This document shows positions 25,928 through 49,175 of a stretch of 55,474 bases of DNA, piece by piece. How positions within the stretch are numbered: the first letter of the stretch is position 1; every line of letters begins with the position of its first letter. The DNA comes from a virus (taxonomy: Duplodnaviria > Caudoviricetes): IMG/VR virus record IMGVR_UViG_3300037993_000105, positions 1 through 55,474 of that record. One strand, 5' to 3'. A program made the translations under genes and the position numbers. Under the pieces are notes generated by a model that saw nothing but the letters and a program-made list of their open reading frames with translations, had not been told where the DNA came from and ran no database searches.

Positions 25928-26077
25928 TTAGCCTATACTTGTGCCACCTGTCACGGTGACAAGCAGTGTGGATTTGCCGCGCGTGCCCGCGACTGTGGGA
26001 GAAATGAGGTGGACGCCAGTGCCTGTCAATACGACTGCGGCTGCAACGCCGAGCCCTGTAGTAGGATTATCTGACAT
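25928..26077 (-). CDS. 49-aa mini-paralog of the upstream decoration protein (not in ORF track)
   Basis: MSDNPTTGLGVAAAVVLTGTGV...LLVTVTG matches HNPTDGLNVAAYVQVTGTNI and IVVTVVA; AAAGGA SD. Confidence 0.65.
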   Translation of the reverse strand: MSDNPTTGLGVAAAVVLTGTGVHLISPTVAGTRGKSTLLVTVTGGTSIG

Positions 26078-26096
26078 ATGTTTTTCCTTTCAGAGT

Positions 26097-26117
26097 GGGG
26101 CGGTAAATAACCGCCCC
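26097..26117 (-). terminator. GC-rich hairpin after the decoration gene
   Basis: GGGGCGGT-loop-ACCGCCCC; no clear U tract. Confidence 0.4.
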
Positions 26118-26127
26118 TGTACTCGGG

Positions 26128-26712
26128 TTACGCTACAACCGTGACAACAATCTGTGCATAAATCATCTGCACAGGATCGCCAGATGCCTGCGAGGGCTCC
26201 GGGTCTGCCGCAGCACTTGCGAAATCGAAAGTCGGGAACTGCACTTCGATAACCGCTTGGCCGAGAGCCAGACCAGTGATGAGGCCTGTGGAACTGACCG
26301 ATGCTACGCTGCCGTTATAGCCAGCGAATGCCGACGGTCGGTACCATGCGGGAGCGCCCGCTGCGGGGTCGTTGTACGACTTGTAGACAGGCGAGCCAAC
26401 CGGAGTATAGGTCGTGTTAGCCACGTCCTTCAGGACAGTGGTCAATTGGCAAGTGTCAGCGTAAACGGTTCCGCCGTAAGTCGCGCCCGACAAACTCAGT
26501 GTCAGAGCATATTGTGCGACAGGGTGATTGGTCGATGCGACCGCGCCGTAGCCTTCGCCGTTCAGACCACGAGTGTCATTAGGCGTTGCTTCGGTAGCGA
26601 CGGTCAGTCCGCCATTGGCGGGGTTGGTGATGTTAGTGCCGGTCACTTGGACGTAAGCCGCTACGTTCAGGCCATCAGTCGGATTGTGCTGTGGATTCGG
26701 ATTTCCGGACAT
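26128..26712 (-). CDS. Ig-like (Big_2) domain capsid decoration/structural protein
   Basis: VASVSSTGLITGLALGQAVIEV Big_2 signature; just downstream of the capsid gene. Confidence 0.7.
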   Translation of the reverse strand: MSGNPNPQHNPTDGLNVAAYVQVTGTNITNPANGGLTVATEATPNDTRGLNGEGYGAVASTNHPVAQYALTLSLSGATYGGTVYADTCQLTTVLKDVANTTYTPVGSPVYKSYNDPAAGAPAWYRPSAFAGYNGSVASVSSTGLITGLALGQAVIEVQFPTFDFASAAADPEPSQASGDPVQMIYAQIVVTVVA

Positions 26713-26715
26713 AGA

Positions 26716-27336
26716 TTATTTCCCTTCTGCGAGGGCCTTAGCCCTCGTCAACACTTCTGTGATTCTCATGTCCACAAGCAGAGACGGAATCTGGTGCCCG
26801 AAGTTCCTAGTCATAGCCATTTCCATCCAAGCCCGTAATGAAAACTTTGACTTGCTAGCTTGGCATGACAACATCGAACTCTCAGGATGTGAACTGCAAC
26901 AAGGCACGAGGTTACCTTTTACATGTCCAAGAGATGAATCAATTCGATCCAACCCCCAAACTTTTCCTTTTTCAGGTAATCGACCACAATAAGTACAAGT
27001 TCGTGGATTTCCAGAATCGTCCAGATAGTAATGAATCACTTCTGTCGGATTAGAAAAACCAAATTCTCGTCCTGCTACTTTGTCCGTCCAACGCATTCCA
27101 TTATATCGTTTTCTGATAATCTTGTAATAGCCGTTAGACATCTTCTGTGCTCGTGCAGTGAATGCCGAGCCCGCTTGTATATATTCCACAAGCGTACCGT
27201 CTTTTCGCCATCCGGCAGCCCAATCCTGTATCGTATCAATACAAACACCTGTTCGGTTCGATATTTCCTGTTGGCTTCTCCGTAGACGCAACAACTCTAA
27301 AACTTTACTTTTCACTTCTTCTGGAAGTGCTTTCAT
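26716..27336 (-). CDS. Free-standing HNH-type homing endonuclease with N-terminal HTH
   Basis: SQQEISNRTGVCIDTIQDW HTH; CTYCG...GLDRIDSSLGHVKGNLVPCC...C..SK; AT-rich. Confidence 0.8.
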   Translation of the reverse strand: MKALPEEVKSKVLELLRLRRSQQEISNRTGVCIDTIQDWAAGWRKDGTLVEYIQAGSAFTARAQKMSNGYYKIIRKRYNGMRWTDKVAGREFGFSNPTEVIHYYLDDSGNPRTCTYCGRLPEKGKVWGLDRIDSSLGHVKGNLVPCCSSHPESSMLSCQASKSKFSLRAWMEMAMTRNFGHQIPSLLVDMRITEVLTRAKALAEGK

Positions 27337-27407
27337 GTTCCCTCCTTAATAGGGATGCCAAAGGCGGGTGATTAAGGCACCCGCCCACGGACTTGTGCAA
27401 CCAGTGA

Positions 27408-29349
27408 TTAGCTGATTGCCGACGCTGCGTCGATCTGACGCATTCTGCAATGTTGTTACTCACCTTTCGGCGGGATAGGTCATTTCTGCCTACCTCATAC
27501 GGTTCAATTCCCGTATGTTCAGACTATCGCATCGCTTGTAACAAGCGTTCTCTCACTTAGTCGTTCAGGCTGCTTTCGCTTGCCCCTTGTTGGCTTCTCA
27601 GCGTTCAAGACAATCAGAGAGAATTTACCCACGACCAGTATGTTAATCGTGGTATCTGGTCCTAGCGAGGTCGTAAAATGAACTCGATAGGATGTCCCAA
27701 CTAGCGACCGGCTACAGCAGCCATCGCTTTACCAGATGTAACCCGGACAGACTCAGTATATCCGGGGATCAACCCTTCAGGGTCTGCAACCGTCGGCTCA
27801 GCGTTCTGCACGATGTTGCACTTGATGTTGCGCCACTCGCCGTCTCCGTAAGTGGTGTCGCCCTGCGCTCCAAGGTTAATGGCGAAGATACCGTCCTTAC
27901 CGAAGATGTAGGTGCGAAGGGCCGTCAGGCCAGTCACGCCACTGTAGTTGATGGTCTTGGTGACCAACGGAGACTGGAAGAAATGAACGCCCGTGGTCGG
28001 GATTTCAATGACTTCCGTCAGATCGACGCTGACCAGCTCTTCCATGCGGGCGAGACCCACAGGGGTGTGCTTCAGGATGTCGATAGGCGAATCGTTGCTG
28101 TTGTCAGCCGTCACGTCGCCAAGGGCGAACGGATGGATGACGCCGACAAAGGACTTGGAAGCCTCGTCGAACGGACGGATCGAACGGCCAGCCATAGACT
28201 GGACGCTGTTACGAATCTGAGACAGCGACAGAGCGGTGAAGCTCGCCGTGGTTGTCGCAGCCAGTTCCACCAACACGCTGGCATCGATGCTGGATGCACC
28301 GTCAGCAGTTGCGCGAACCAATGCGCTCAGAGACTCGCCAAGACGATACGACATTTCTTTCGCAACGTTCTCGACGGTCTGGTCAATCGCGGTTGCGAGA
28401 GACAGGGACGAAAAGTTCGCGTAGTCAGCGTACTCGCCGATAGTGGCAGTCGTATTCAGGACGTTGACGGACAGGGACGGGCCCACAGTTCCTTCGGTCG
28501 TCTGGTTGGTGTTAGCAGCCAGCGGCACGTACATGAACATTTCTAATGTGTTTTGGGTTTAAGACTCGAAAGTCCCTGATGTCACCATCAGGTCGCTCTG
28601 CATGTCACCATGCAGTTCAGACTCTATCATGACTCCCTGCGGAGTCTCTTGCGTATTAGTCGTTAGGGATACCCCACGAGAATTCAAAATTCTTAACTGT
28701 TGCCAATAAACTCGACGCAATTCGTTGTTCGCTTCAGGAGCGAGTCTAACGAAATTCAGCAAGATTTTTGCTTGTTCCCGTTTCACAACTAGGTAAGGGA
28801 GCGTTGCTAATAGAAGAATCTCTATATCCTTCTTCTTTAGCACTCGCCACATGTAGGCTTCTTTCGTTTTCGCTGTCGCTTTCTTTGACAGGTATACGCT
28901 TCCGCCAAAATTACTTTGCAGCCAATCAATCAACTTCTTACTCGTGCTTTGTACCATCACGATTGAGTTGTAATTTATGCAGGTCTCTTTTTGACCAGCA
29001 CCGATTGTGATGCAACCTTCACCATCTAGAATGCCTGCGAGGTAGCCATACTTCGCTTTATCTGACATTTTGCCTCCTTTCGGATATTATGTAGGCATGG
29101 GGTCTTTCCTCGGTATTGTCTACTATTTACTATAGCAGGGGTCCACCGATTTAGCAAGATTTATTTTTACAACCAGTACAAAATGTTTTAGATATACTGG
29201 TTACCGCTCTTCATGGGCAGGTCAAGGCGCTCTGCGCATGCGACGAACGGGGTTTGCGCCTTCAGGTTCTCACGGAACCGTTTATCATAATACTTCACCG
29301 TGGATTGAGGCAGGTTGGATTGCTGGTTTCCAGCAGGAGAGAAAGACAT
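27408..29349 (-). CDS. Major capsid protein (HK97 fold, N4-gp56-like), spliced from 4 exons: 29349..29194, 28543..27760, 27697..27646, 27447..27408; 343 aa
   Basis: Exons sum to 1032 nt in one frame: MSFSPAGN...GNQY|EMFMY...DPEGLIPG-W-TSYRVHFTTSLGPDTT-I-RMRQIDAASAIS*; follows scaffold; VIHPF and DP.G..GW.SY capsid motifs. Confidence 0.9.
27448..27645 (-). ncRNA. Group I intron, 198 nt, no ORF (capsid intron 3)
   Basis: P1 CCACGAU/GUCGUGG with U.G; P3 UUCUCUC/GAGAGAA; P7 GACUA/UAGUC; P8 CGCUUG/CAAGCG; P9 CAUACGG/CCGUAUG; terminal G; P10 CUG/CAG. Confidence 0.9.
27698..27759 (-). other. 62-nt core-less group I-like mini-intron (capsid intron 2)
   Basis: P1 CCCGGAU/GUCCGGG with U.G; P10 GUCU/GGAC; hairpin AGCGAU.GGCU/AGCC.GUCGCU; ends in G; removal rebuilds the U|GG Trp codon and the frame. 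Confidence 0.8.
28544..29193 (-). mobile_element. Group I intron, 650 nt, encoding a LAGLIDADG endonuclease (capsid intron 1)
   Basis: P1 AACCAGUAU/GUACUGGUU; P3 UCUUGC/GCAAGA; P4 UCGGU/ACCGA; R AACGACUAAU and S AUGAUAGAGUCU; P8 GACUCC/GGAGUC; P9 hairpins; P10 AACAUUUU/GAAAUGUU. Confidence 0.9.
28559..29068 (-). CDS. Intron-encoded single-motif LAGLIDADG homing endonuclease
   Basis: YLAGILDGEGCI, FGGSV, LPYLVVKREQA; AAGGAGG SD; ORF reads through intron P7-P9. Confidence 0.9.
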   Translation of the reverse strand: MSDKAKYGYLAGILDGEGCITIGAGQKETCINYNSIVMVQSTSKKLIDWLQSNFGGSVYLSKKATAKTKEAYMWRVLKKKDIEILLLATLPYLVVKREQAKILLNFVRLAPEANNELRRVYWQQLRILNSRGVSLTTNTQETPQGVMIESELHGDMQSDLMVTSGTFES

Positions 29350-29364
29350 AATCTATCCTTCAGG

Positions 29365-30501
29365 TTAAGCTGATACTGGTGCACGCTTTCTGGCGTCCGC
29401 TGCACGTTGCAGGTCGTTCACCAACTTTGCAAAAGCCGGGTTTCTAAGTTTTTTCTTATACTCTTCGGAAGGCATGTTATCAATATCATCCAAAGTAATG
29501 TCAGTTGTCACACCACTTGTTGTGGAGTCTGAAGCATTGCTGCTATTCAGACCGGACGGGACTCTTACTTGGCGCTTTGTTTGCGGCTGCTCGACGGGAG
29601 TAATCCGACTCTCGGTTGCAACTGGAACCGGCGATACTTTTGGTTCCGTACTCGGCGCGGGTGCAGTCGGACCCACTGTGGGTACAGACGGCACGGGCGC
29701 GGGAGTTACCTCACGCACGATAGGGCTGTCGAGGAGCAATCCGGCTCCCTTCAGCGTTGAAAAAGCTAAGTTGAACATCGCGACAGTAGGATTTAGCTTC
29801 TTCTTGAACATCCATGCTGTCAGTACTTGTTTGTTTTCAGCACACGGATAAAACTCCGGTGTCTGTTTCTCGAAAATGTCGTAGTTCGACTTTGCCGTCA
29901 ACTGCAACATGAGCAACTGTTGGTTGTTCAGTGTTTGACGCAGTACGTCAGGCTTCATGCCGACGCTGGCTTCGAACATCGTGTCAATCGCTTCTAGCGA
30001 CTTCGACGGATCGTTCAAGTCTTGCGAAAGATTGAACCGCTCTTCGGTGGACAACTCGCGCGGCTTAAACTCAACAAATGACTCAAAGCGCTGTGCGTCG
30101 TCGGGCAGTGGCGTATCGTCCACGATCCCCAGCGTTTGTTTGCGGGTGACCTCGCGCAACTTGCGCACGAGTTCGACATTTTGAGCTGTGAGTTTTTGCG
30201 CCAACTCGTCCGGCGTATGATAGACGATGACTTGTTTTCCACCCAACTTCGCACCGGCAATATCTGTCGGCTGGTACTCGTATCGAAGCTCTGGCAATGC
30301 ATCCGTAGGCGCAACTACCTGATCGCTATGCGCAACTATGGGCTCGCTATGCGCAACTATGGGAGCAACCGCGGACGTGATGCGCGGGTCACTCGGATCG
30401 TCAAGTGTGTTATCGCCGGGTGCGACGGGCGCAGCTGTGGGCGCGATCACTTCCGGCTCCATTCGACTAAGACGGTTACGAACTGAACTGTTCATTGGCA
30501 T
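29365..30501 (-). CDS. Capsid scaffolding protein
   Basis: Between portal and capsid; Pro-rich linker and C-terminal DIDNMPSEEYKKKL helix pair. Confidence 0.7.
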   Translation of the reverse strand: MPMNSSVRNRLSRMEPEVIAPTAAPVAPGDNTLDDPSDPRITSAVAPIVAHSEPIVAHSDQVVAPTDALPELRYEYQPTDIAGAKLGGKQVIVYHTPDELAQKLTAQNVELVRKLREVTRKQTLGIVDDTPLPDDAQRFESFVEFKPRELSTEERFNLSQDLNDPSKSLEAIDTMFEASVGMKPDVLRQTLNNQQLLMLQLTAKSNYDIFEKQTPEFYPCAENKQVLTAWMFKKKLNPTVAMFNLAFSTLKGAGLLLDSPIVREVTPAPVPSVPTVGPTAPAPSTEPKVSPVPVATESRITPVEQPQTKRQVRVPSGLNSSNASDSTTSGVTTDITLDDIDNMPSEEYKKKLRNPAFAKLVNDLQRAADARKRAPVSA

Positions 30502-48544: not shown

Positions 48545-48985
48545 ATGGAAGACTTGAACAGGAAAAGAAAACGTCAGCGTGAGTGGGTTGCTAAGCGACG
48601 AAAGAATTGGTTTGCCGCTAATGGCCCTTGCAGGGGGTGCGGCTCTTCGGAGAACCTAGAGATGCATCACATTGACCGCACTGAGAAGGAAGAACACAGA
48701 ATCTTTTCTTGGTCTAAAGCAAGGCGGGAAGTAGAGCTGGTGAAGTGTGTCGTGCTTTGTCATAGCTGCCACCGTAAAGAAACAAATAAGCAGGTTGGTA
48801 CGCGGAGACCTGTTAATCACATTCATGGCACACAGACAGAATACCGTCGTGGATGCAGGTGCGAACCCTGCCGTACTGCAAAGTACGAAGCCATCAAACA
48901 TGAGCGTATGAAGAAACAGGCGACGGTTGCGGACTCGGGTTCGAATCCCGACATCTCCACTGAGGGCACTATCTCAGTGTCCTGA
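48545..48985 (+). CDS. HNH endonuclease overlapping the tmRNA acceptor piece
   Basis: CRGCG...LEMHHID...KCVVLCHSCH; HGT...Y.RGCRC..C. Confidence 0.85.
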   Translation: MEDLNRKRKRQREWVAKRRKNWFAANGPCRGCGSSENLEMHHIDRTEKEEHRIFSWSKARREVELVKCVVLCHSCHRKETNKQVGTRRPVNHIHGTQTEYRRGCRCEPCRTAKYEAIKHERMKKQATVADSGSNPDISTEGTISVS

Positions 48986-49175
48986 GTGGGGATGAAAGGC
49001 GTTCGACGCAGCTGGTTTGTTTGTTTTCGACGTTCCGCACTGACGTGGCTGGCGTAAAATAGACACGTAAACCAATAAATGCTACGACTGAAAAGCCGAA
49101 GGCATTTGCTGCTACTGCCGGAAGGTAGTGAGTAGCTGGGGCGGTCAGAAGCCTAGCAACAGAATATCTGACCAC
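48902..49175 (+). ncRNA. ssrA: Circularly permuted (two-piece) tmRNA: acceptor piece ends 48959, coding piece starts 48988, tag 49081..49128
   Basis: T-arm UCGGGUUCGAAUCCCGA + CAUCUCC-A precedes GGGGAUG...UUCGAC; 7-bp acceptor stem with G3.U70; P2 CGCAGCUG/CGGUUGCG; AUAAAU-GCU resume site; 5' end of the acceptor piece uncertain. Confidence 0.88.

Follow-up and report, generated by a model that had tools for sequence, protein, structure and literature searches.

The major capsid gene of the virus record IMGVR_UViG_3300037993_000105 is interrupted by a 62-nucleotide (nt) insert that lacks the catalytic core of a group I intron and yet, judging from the elements at its boundaries, is very probably removed by group I-type splicing. 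The reading favored here, with some reserve, is that the insert is a non-autonomous group I-type intron (hereafter mini-intron) spliced by a neighboring intron acting as its helper. This reading is preferred because such inserts co-occur with full introns and because it agrees with established group I biochemistry. Every comparative test that could be made supports it. The window, i.e., the whole stretch of DNA analyzed, is a linear IMG/VR viral contig of 55,474 bases that is about 59% complete by estimate.

Gene layout and anatomy of the insert

Among named phages, the window is closest to Tunturiibacter phage Tunturi_3, a podovirus that infects a soil acidobacterium. Its major head protein is uninterrupted (343 amino acids, aa), ends in ..DPEGLIPGWTSYRVHFTTSLGPDTTIRIREIDAASAIS before the stop, and shares 81% identity with the product translated from 28546..27761 (minus strand). 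Comparison with this intron-less homolog divides the capsid gene of the window into the following parts.

29194..29349, minus strand: capsid exon 1, with the ATG at 29349-29347; 52 codons ending in ..GNQY (the tblastn alignment of Tunturi_3 breaks at aa 52)
28544..29193, minus strand: intron 1, 650 nt, group I-like, with a LAGLIDADG-type open reading frame (ORF) at 29068..28562
27760..28543, minus strand: capsid exon 2, 784 nt; its last 7 nt, CCCGGAU (27766-27760), are the 5' strand of the predicted mini-intron P1
27698..27759, minus strand: putative core-less mini-intron, 62 nt
27646..27697, minus strand: capsid exon 3, 52 nt, comprising the GG of a Trp codon, TSYRVHFTTSLGPDTT, and the AU of an Ile codon
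27448..27645, minus strand: intron 3, a compact group I intron of 198 nt without an ORF; candidate helper ribozyme
27408..27447, minus strand: capsid exon 4, (I)RMRQIDAASAIS, with the stop at 27410-27408

Joining 29349-29194, 28543-27760, 27697-27646, and 27447-27408 gives 1032 nt that encode 343 aa with no internal stop. The product has the same length as the Tunturi_3 protein and is identical to it at 283 of 343 ungapped positions, including 11 of 11 across the mini-intron junction. With the 62 nt retained, the capsid frame stops at position 333.

On the minus strand, the capsid frame before the insert reads ..DPEGLIPG, followed by the T at 27760. The insert itself (27759..27698, AUACUG...UAGUUG) has a length that is not a multiple of three and contains an in-frame UAG at 27703-27701. 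Beyond it, GG ACA UCC UAU.. encodes (W)TSYRVHF, and exact excision restores the Trp codon. An earlier note on this DNA, made from the sequence alone, had claimed such a frame-breaking insert, and direct reading of the junctions, which yields the 343-aa frame, bears this out.

The other elements that the earlier note described are likewise present in the window. P1 would form between the exon end CCCGGAU (27766-27760) and GUCCGGG (27748-27742), with 7 base pairs (bp) and a U.G pair at the cut. P10 would form between GUCU (27752-27749) and GGAC (27697-27694), the first four nucleotides of exon 3, and its guide lies directly 5' of the P1 guide. The last base of the mini-intron (27698) is G. Of 300,000 mononucleotide shuffles of the 62 nt, 45 combine a terminal G with a U.G-containing P1 of 7 bp or more and, next to it, a P10 of 4 bp or more. 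The minimum-energy fold of the insert shows the P1 hairpin and a 3' hairpin (27727-27704); its z-score is only -1.78, so folding by itself is no proof of a mini-intron.

Of the features of a group I intron, the 62 nt thus contain the P1 with its U.G, the P10, and the terminal G, and lack the P3-P9 core with the guanosine site in P7. Within 27698-27759, Rfam gave no match at E <= 10, and R1, a model built from a 21-sequence alignment of the compact ORF-less intron family to which intron 3 belongs, gave none at E <= 1. This agrees with the earlier claim that the insert has no room for a core, as does the existence of family members down to 34 nt. Since an RNA of 34 nt cannot hold a group I active site, the core must come from elsewhere. 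Over 26000-29500, Rfam at E <= 10 returned only Intron_gpI (in intron 1) and a chance match to HIV-1 SL3.

Two other kinds of element were considered and rejected. Small self-cleaving ribozymes (hammerhead, twister, pistol, hatchet, and hepatitis delta virus-like) had no family match in the same Rfam search of 26000-29500. An archaeal-type bulge-helix-bulge intron, in which a 4-bp helix has a 3-nt bulge on either side at the cut sites, does not fit the exon ends, which pair with one continuous guide (P1 plus P10) and have no bulges at the cuts.

A family of inserts at the same capsid position

A search of viral contigs with exon 2 found 120 relatives, of which the best 80 were examined (contigs from this and the other searches carry numbers with the prefix L). 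Most of those examined run uninterrupted from ..LIPG to W-TSYRVHF. The expectation that intron-less homologs would read IPGWTSY therefore holds, and the Trp codon TGG is invariant in all 53 insert-less junction contexts. The same T/GG position is interrupted in L007 (71 nt), L051, L052, and L054 (98 nt each), L065 (39 nt), and L069 (97 nt). Two pattern scans for G + GGAC + exon 3 gave 20 matches in viral contigs and 32 in metagenome contigs. Capsid genes account for 18 and 23 of these, respectively, and each has an insert of 34-98 nt at T/GG; none of these 18 viral and 23 metagenome capsid matches has a full-length intron there.

After deduplication, 25 distinct T/GG inserts from environmental viral and metagenome contigs remain, with lengths of 34, 34, 34, 36, 36, 37, 38, 39, 39, 39, 40, 40, 49, 50, 51, 52, 62, 65, 71, 83, 94, 94, 94, 97, and 98 nt. 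These lengths span all three classes modulo 3, and the four inserts with lengths that are multiples of three all contain in-frame stops. Hence, no T/GG insert can be read through as extra residues.

An uninterrupted P1 that ends in U.G at the junction is present in all 25 inserts (7 bp in 18 and 6 bp in seven). The P1 guide sits 8-18 nt into the insert and occurs in seven versions with zero mismatches. P1 was not selected by the search, because the patterns fixed only the 3' exon and the preceding G. Pairs were counted in 20 of the 25 inserts (19 distinct rows), the other five repeating P1 segments already included, and all 126 P1 cells are paired. Covariation is seen at pair 6-33 (CG in 12, UA in five, GC in two) and pair 9-30 (AU in 12, UA in four, CG in three). 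The covariation score was reached by none of 500 shuffles, and sliding the register by 1-3 columns leaves only 10-53% paired. The variable exon bases of P1 are the third positions of Pro and Gly codons, which are free to vary in insert-less alleles, and the guide tracks them.

The P10 guide lies directly 5' of the P1 guide in 25 of 25 inserts (GUCU in 23 and GUCC in two), opposite an invariant GGAC. Covariation of P10 is impossible at this site because the exon bases are fixed by Trp-Thr. Accordingly, of the prediction that related phages would carry short inserts with covarying P1 and P10, the inserts and the P1 covariation were found, and P10 is present at a site where it cannot covary. All 25 inserts end in G, a count that is partly due to design given that the scan patterns demanded a G before GGAC; the terminal G also occurs in the mini-introns found by protein similarity (71, 98, 39, and 97 nt) and at the five other capsid sites described below. 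The internal hairpin of the long mini-introns covaries weakly (3 of 19 pairs), and several of its pairs are broken.

The reading frame beyond the insert was compared among the carriers over the 13 codons at the start of exon 3. The carriers have 20 different sequences there, with two to six codons used per residue, and the codon switches include AGY/UCN for Ser and CGN/AGR for Arg; only one residue varies (V/I/L). Codons 2-7 are partly fixed by the search patterns, and the last five residues (T, S, L, G, and P), on which the patterns placed no constraint, are invariant with four to six codons each. Judging from these codon patterns, the exon 3 frame is in use and under strong purifying selection across the 20 carrier sequences.

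Core-less inserts at other capsid sites

Five further capsid sites with core-less inserts of 41-61 nt were found by tblastn of Tunturi_3 against all loci, followed by reading of the junctions.

After CAGUAU, aa 52/53: 41-43 nt, in L069 and L121
After GAGAU, aa 54/55: 44-47 nt, in L051, L054, L064, and L070
After AAGUAU, aa 20/21: 43 and 56 nt, in L076 and L081
After CUACGAU, aa 22/23: 61 nt, in L105
After CAGACCCU, aa 307/308: 46 nt, in L081

In each of these inserts, a separate P1 closes with a U.G pair, a P10 of 5-7 bp lies beside it, and the last base is G. At every one of the five sites, the conserved protein is restored only by splicing at the predicted bonds. At aa 54/55, L098, L100, L102, and L127 have complete introns of 202-208 nt with the same P1 and P10 as the mini-introns found there, which fits an origin of mini-introns by core loss. 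Mini-introns thus probably arose from full introns through loss of the core.

The 56-nt mini-intron at aa 20/21 of L076 (3110-3165) contains an ATG in frame with the next exon. An N-terminally shortened capsid protein could start there, and the ATG may also be a chance occurrence.

Complete group I introns and their co-occurrence with mini-introns

Intron 3 starts 52 nt downstream of the mini-intron and matches R1 with 207 bits (E 5e-52). It has a P1 (CCACGAU, the last 7 nt of exon 3, with GUCGUGG) that includes the U.G, a P7 pair (GACUA / UAGUC), and a terminal G at 27448. In the 21-sequence family alignment, compensatory changes occur in 30 of 41 predicted pairs, such that intron 3 has a P3-P9 structure with covariation in addition to the other hallmarks of group I. 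Rfam Intron_gpI misses this intron even at E <= 10, and compact phage introns of this kind are likely to be under-annotated. To our knowledge, the smallest natural group I introns are about 200 nt, which is the size of intron 3.

Intron 1 matches Rfam Intron_gpI with 29 bits (E 1e-4, below the gathering score) and R1 with 18 bits. Its ORF matches Pfam LAGLIDADG_1 (E 1.6e-4) and phrog_5046 (E 4e-19). The predicted P1 is AACCAGUAU/GUACUGGUU and the P10 is AACAUUUU/GAAAUGUU. Homology and the 8-bp P10 place the intron end at ..CAUUA/GAAAUG (28544), where the last base is A rather than the usual G. An A-ending at this site is also found in L073, and L032, L077, L048, and L061 end in G. With R1 and Rfam combined, intron 1 and intron 3 are the only group I cores in the 55-kb window; these are the two complete group I ribozymes, the nearest 52 nt away, that the earlier note had placed in the capsid gene.

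Across the relatives, R1 has 62 matches in 100 loci, and it matches at least once in each of the 23 capsid loci from the metagenome scan. A compact intron lies 40-95 nt downstream of all 25 T/GG mini-introns, at three insertion sites (9, 11, and 5 cases); in L092 and L111, the contig ends inside this intron. Because related mini-introns stand beside helpers at different sites, the pairing of mini-intron and helper is not simple linkage. Among 64 distinct complete genes from the protein-similarity set, seven have both a mini-intron and a full intron, none has a mini-intron only, 15 have a full intron only, and 42 have neither (one-sided Fisher test, 2.7e-4). When the pattern loci and the window are added (77 distinct complete genes), the counts are 20, 0, 15, and 42, respectively; both sets of counts ignore shared descent. 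The occurrence of full introns without mini-introns, but of no mini-intron without a full intron, is the pattern of a dependent element. Of the claim that the 62 nt are a satellite intron spliced by a helper, the constant company of full introns is observed, and splicing and the identity of the helper are inferred.

Two other candidates were discarded. A 135-nt partial R1 match in L088, considered as a degenerate intron, is the 3' part of an ORF-containing intron. A pairing between an AUCUG motif and the Gln-Ile codons of exon 4 held in only three contigs and failed in the others.

The 3' end of the capsid gene is a hot spot for introns. Across many loci, full group I introns occupy at least six positions there within about 80 nt (aa 316-340), including those after TGGACTTCCT in L042-45/L074 and L061, after ..CGCGT in L070, and at sites A, B, and C.

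Proposed splicing by a helper and points against it

In the favored reading, the core of a complete group I intron would dock the P1 of the mini-intron. This core could be located in the same pre-mRNA or in an already excised, free intron RNA, and the most likely candidate is the 198-nt intron 3; the distance from the end of exon 2 to exon 4 is less than 400 nt. A free guanosine bound in P7 of the helper would attack after U27760, and the terminal G of the mini-intron (27698) would then occupy the same site. The freed exon end would attack the 27698/27697 bond, rebuilding the UGG codon. Once present, mini-introns would leave the phage unable to do without the helper ribozyme. Whether this amounts to a natural "spliceozyme" system, in which full introns are enzymes shared by satellite mini-introns at no fewer than six capsid sites and the phage is addicted to its helpers, is an evenly balanced question.

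Several observations weigh against this reading. The first concerns RNA and the search for a spliced form. Nineteen peat or permafrost metatranscriptome runs share about half of the words of window 27500-28500. Four of the metatranscriptome runs (X1, X2, X3, and X6) have zero cover over 26702-27767, and their contigs cover exons 1 and 2 and depart from the window sequence at 27768 as an insert-less allele. With zero cover over the insert, these four runs are neutral on whether the 62 nt are spliced out. When viral contigs were scanned for exact matches to exon 3 in search of the spliced form, the exon 3 of the window had none, and the commonest carrier exon 3 returned only three contigs, which are unspliced. 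At 55 insert-less loci, no flanks are closer than 9 mismatches per 101 nt to any carrier, and a scan of prokaryote genomes gave seven matches, none of which is related to the capsid gene.

Second, pairing between the tail of a mini-intron and its own helper is no better than with other helpers. The mean duplex energy is -18.07 for cognate and -18.21 for non-cognate combinations, and 1183 of 2000 permutations were as low as the cognate value. Nothing would therefore tether a mini-intron to its helper except the common transcript, and the helper model, if right, means that the P1/P10 helix is recognized as such. In the ribozymes studied, a detached P1 helix docks weakly to the core. Third, the sole full intron in the capsid gene of L076 is of the LAGLIDADG type and lies about 210 nt from the mini-intron, and the compact intron type occurs about 3.5 kb upstream, in another gene. 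Fourth, in the long mini-introns a ribosome would traverse the guide before reaching the stop. The search design behind the terminal G count and the shared descent behind the co-occurrence counts also belong on this side.

The metatranscriptomes provide further observations on the capsid gene. The allele in the peat runs X1, X2, X3, and X6 differs from the window by 1-2%, has neither intron 1 nor the insert, and reaches contig depths of 84-1568. Contigs of low depth (3.6-17.8) from the peat runs represent intron 1 in part, and its 3' boundary is among the stretches covered. RNA contigs from a related strain join 29195 to 28543, i.e., across intron 1.

Alternative explanations

The insert may instead be excised from the RNA by another agent, such as a ribozyme acting in trans from an unrecognized gene elsewhere in the phage genome, an RNA of the host, or an endonuclease and a ligase working as a protein pair. 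Both the window and every carrier contig are fragmentary, with estimates of 12-70% completeness, which leaves room for such an agent, and the lack of cognate pairing and the position of the compact ribozymes of L076 in a different gene are compatible with it. However, the U.G in P1, the adjacent P10, and the terminal G are group I recognition elements, and no known protein splicing enzyme uses them. Moreover, R1 cores in the 55 kb occur only within the capsid gene, and in none of the 77 genes does a mini-intron occur without a full intron. Excision by another agent is accordingly considered unlikely.

Translational bypass would leave the insert in the mRNA. As in T4 gene 60 or the mitochondrial "byp" elements, the ribosome would leave the message at the Gly codon that precedes the insert and resume at GGG (the terminal G plus GG), with the covarying hairpin serving as the take-off stem-loop. 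Several features fit this model: Gly codons stand at both take-off and landing, the hairpin includes the take-off codon, a stop codon follows right after the Gly in 5 of 25 inserts, and 34-98 nt is near the sizes of known bypass gaps. However, a hop from Gly to GGG would omit the Trp, which all 53 insert-less alleles contain, and ribosomal bypass is unlikely for that reason. The take-off codon is GGA in 16 of 24 carriers and GGU or GGC in the other eight, and the tRNA that reads the latter two would not pair correctly with GGG. At the five other mini-intron sites, no matched codon pair would restore the conserved protein, whereas splicing does. Nor would bypass require the P10 guide or the U.G that is invariant at the junction. 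Taken together, these points make bypass very unlikely.

The inserts could also be dead or artefactual, either as decayed intron remnants in non-viable genomes or as full introns collapsed during assembly. The window is a single metagenomic contig in which 27698-27759 has zero cover in the four metatranscriptome runs, and the A at the end of intron 1, placed by homology, is consistent with decay. Against this, identical mini-introns recur (e.g., the 98-nt form in three viral and four metagenome contigs, possibly with some records counted twice) and different mini-introns diverge from each other by substitution. No full intron occurs at T/GG in the capsid matches of either scan. The conserved exon 3 frame, with its 20 distinct carrier sequences under strong purifying selection, is reachable only by exact removal of the insert, which counts against dead alleles. 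This explanation is highly improbable.

Least probable of all, to the point of being barely tenable, is that the unspliced message encodes the product or one of two products, with a capsid protein ending in 20 insert-encoded residues and partial splicing setting the isoform ratio: inserts of 62-98 nt do read to a stop near their 3' end with similar peptides, and the 62- and 71-nt forms are 9 nt apart, but the peptide similarity lies over the P10 and guide segment and is explained by RNA constraint, short inserts stop immediately or within a few codons, the exon 3 frame is conserved, and the internal hairpin covaries at only the three pairs noted above.

The neighboring nuclease gene and other window features

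The capsid gene is directly followed by a nuclease gene.

26719..27336, minus strand: free-standing nuclease-like gene, with helix-turn-helix (HTH) and endonuclease VII-like parts

The ORF (27336..26719) matches phrog_1035 "endonuclease VII" (E 7.5e-8) and has weak Pfam matches to HTH families. It lies past the capsid stop (27410-27408) and outside intron 3. The same kind of ORF, read from the sequence, stands after the capsid gene in L007, L051, L069, L089, L093, and L101, and the presence of compact ORF-less introns always goes with an HTH and endonuclease VII-like gene directly after the capsid gene. This gene may be a homing endonuclease, and the arrangement recalls "collaborative homing," in which an ORF-less intron is accompanied by a neighboring nuclease gene. 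Satellite mini-introns may shield nuclease target sites. The gene 60 bypass cassette of phage T4 and collaborative homing are similar in that a short non-coding gap in an essential phage gene lies beside a nuclease gene and may protect a nuclease target site. However, the gene 60 gap is skipped by the ribosome, whereas the evidence for the mini-intron points to removal from the RNA.

Elsewhere in the window, 48902-49122 on the plus strand is a permuted transfer-messenger RNA (tmRNA; Rfam RF04321, 71.9 bits, E 6e-12). At the gathering threshold, this tmRNA is the sole Rfam match in the whole window, and no intron is reported.

Relation to known systems

Group I introns are defined by self-splicing. 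The introns of T4 (td, nrdB, and sunY) and of Staphylococcus phage Twort orf142 resemble the mini-introns in having a P1 with U.G, a P10, and a terminal G, in residing in conserved phage genes, and in occurring several per gene. They differ in that they possess a full P3-P9 core and splice alone, whereas the mini-introns of 34-98 nt have no core. In Twort orf142, which has three introns, Landthaler and Shub (1999) reportedly observed exon skipping, in which a splice site of one intron is used with that of another.

The nearest natural analogs are found in two other groups of introns. The group III introns and twintrons of Euglena chloroplasts are degenerate group II introns of about 100 nt that are thought to require help in trans. 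Like the mini-introns, they are very short and have kept boundary elements while most of the catalytic structure is gone. Unlike the mini-introns, they belong to another intron class with a different chemistry (lariat, domain VI) and to an organelle rather than a phage; we know of no helper identified for them. Fragmented group I introns that are spliced in trans occur in placozoan, fungal, and lycophyte mitochondria. In these introns as well, the catalytic structure does not come from one continuous intron. However, their two halves rebuild one core, whereas a mini-intron adds no part of a core and would use a complete foreign one.

In function, the closest likeness is to engineered trans-excision-splicing ribozymes, or "spliceozymes" (PMC2532722, PMC4094466). 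These are group I cores that cut an internal, core-less stretch of 64-100 nt out of a separate mRNA and ligate its flanks, provided that suitable bases stand at the two splice sites of the stretch. One of them, derived from the Tetrahymena group I ribozyme, excises core-less introns of 64 and 100 nt from mRNA in trans, both in vitro and in E. coli, so the chemistry is feasible in a bacterial cell (PMC4094466). The guides of the engineered systems are on the ribozyme, whereas the phage mini-introns carry both exon guides inside the excised segment. The phage case would moreover be natural, with a ribozyme that recognizes a ready-made P1/P10 helix.

A literature search, with most subscription journals outside its coverage, found no description of natural core-less group I introns. 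The report on the Tunturi phages does not contain the word "intron" (PMC11924767), and two further papers have nothing on core-less introns (PMC11878797, PMC4853749).

Biological implications

For annotation, such an element would be a warning that a frame-breaking insert of 30-100 nt in a phage gene need not mean a pseudogene. If the favored reading is correct, the 62-nt insert would be the first non-autonomous group I intron, consisting of the substrate half only and relying on the core of another intron. A ribozyme would then work as a multi-substrate enzyme inside a bacterial cell, and the dependence of mini-introns on their helper would show how selfish introns become indispensable to their host. 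The system would also be the group I counterpart of the step proposed to lead from group II introns to the spliceosome, in which catalysis moved to RNA acting in trans and introns were cut down to their splice signals. As such, these phages would harbor a living intermediate stage, with self-splicing introns on one side and a splicing machine that acts in trans on the other.

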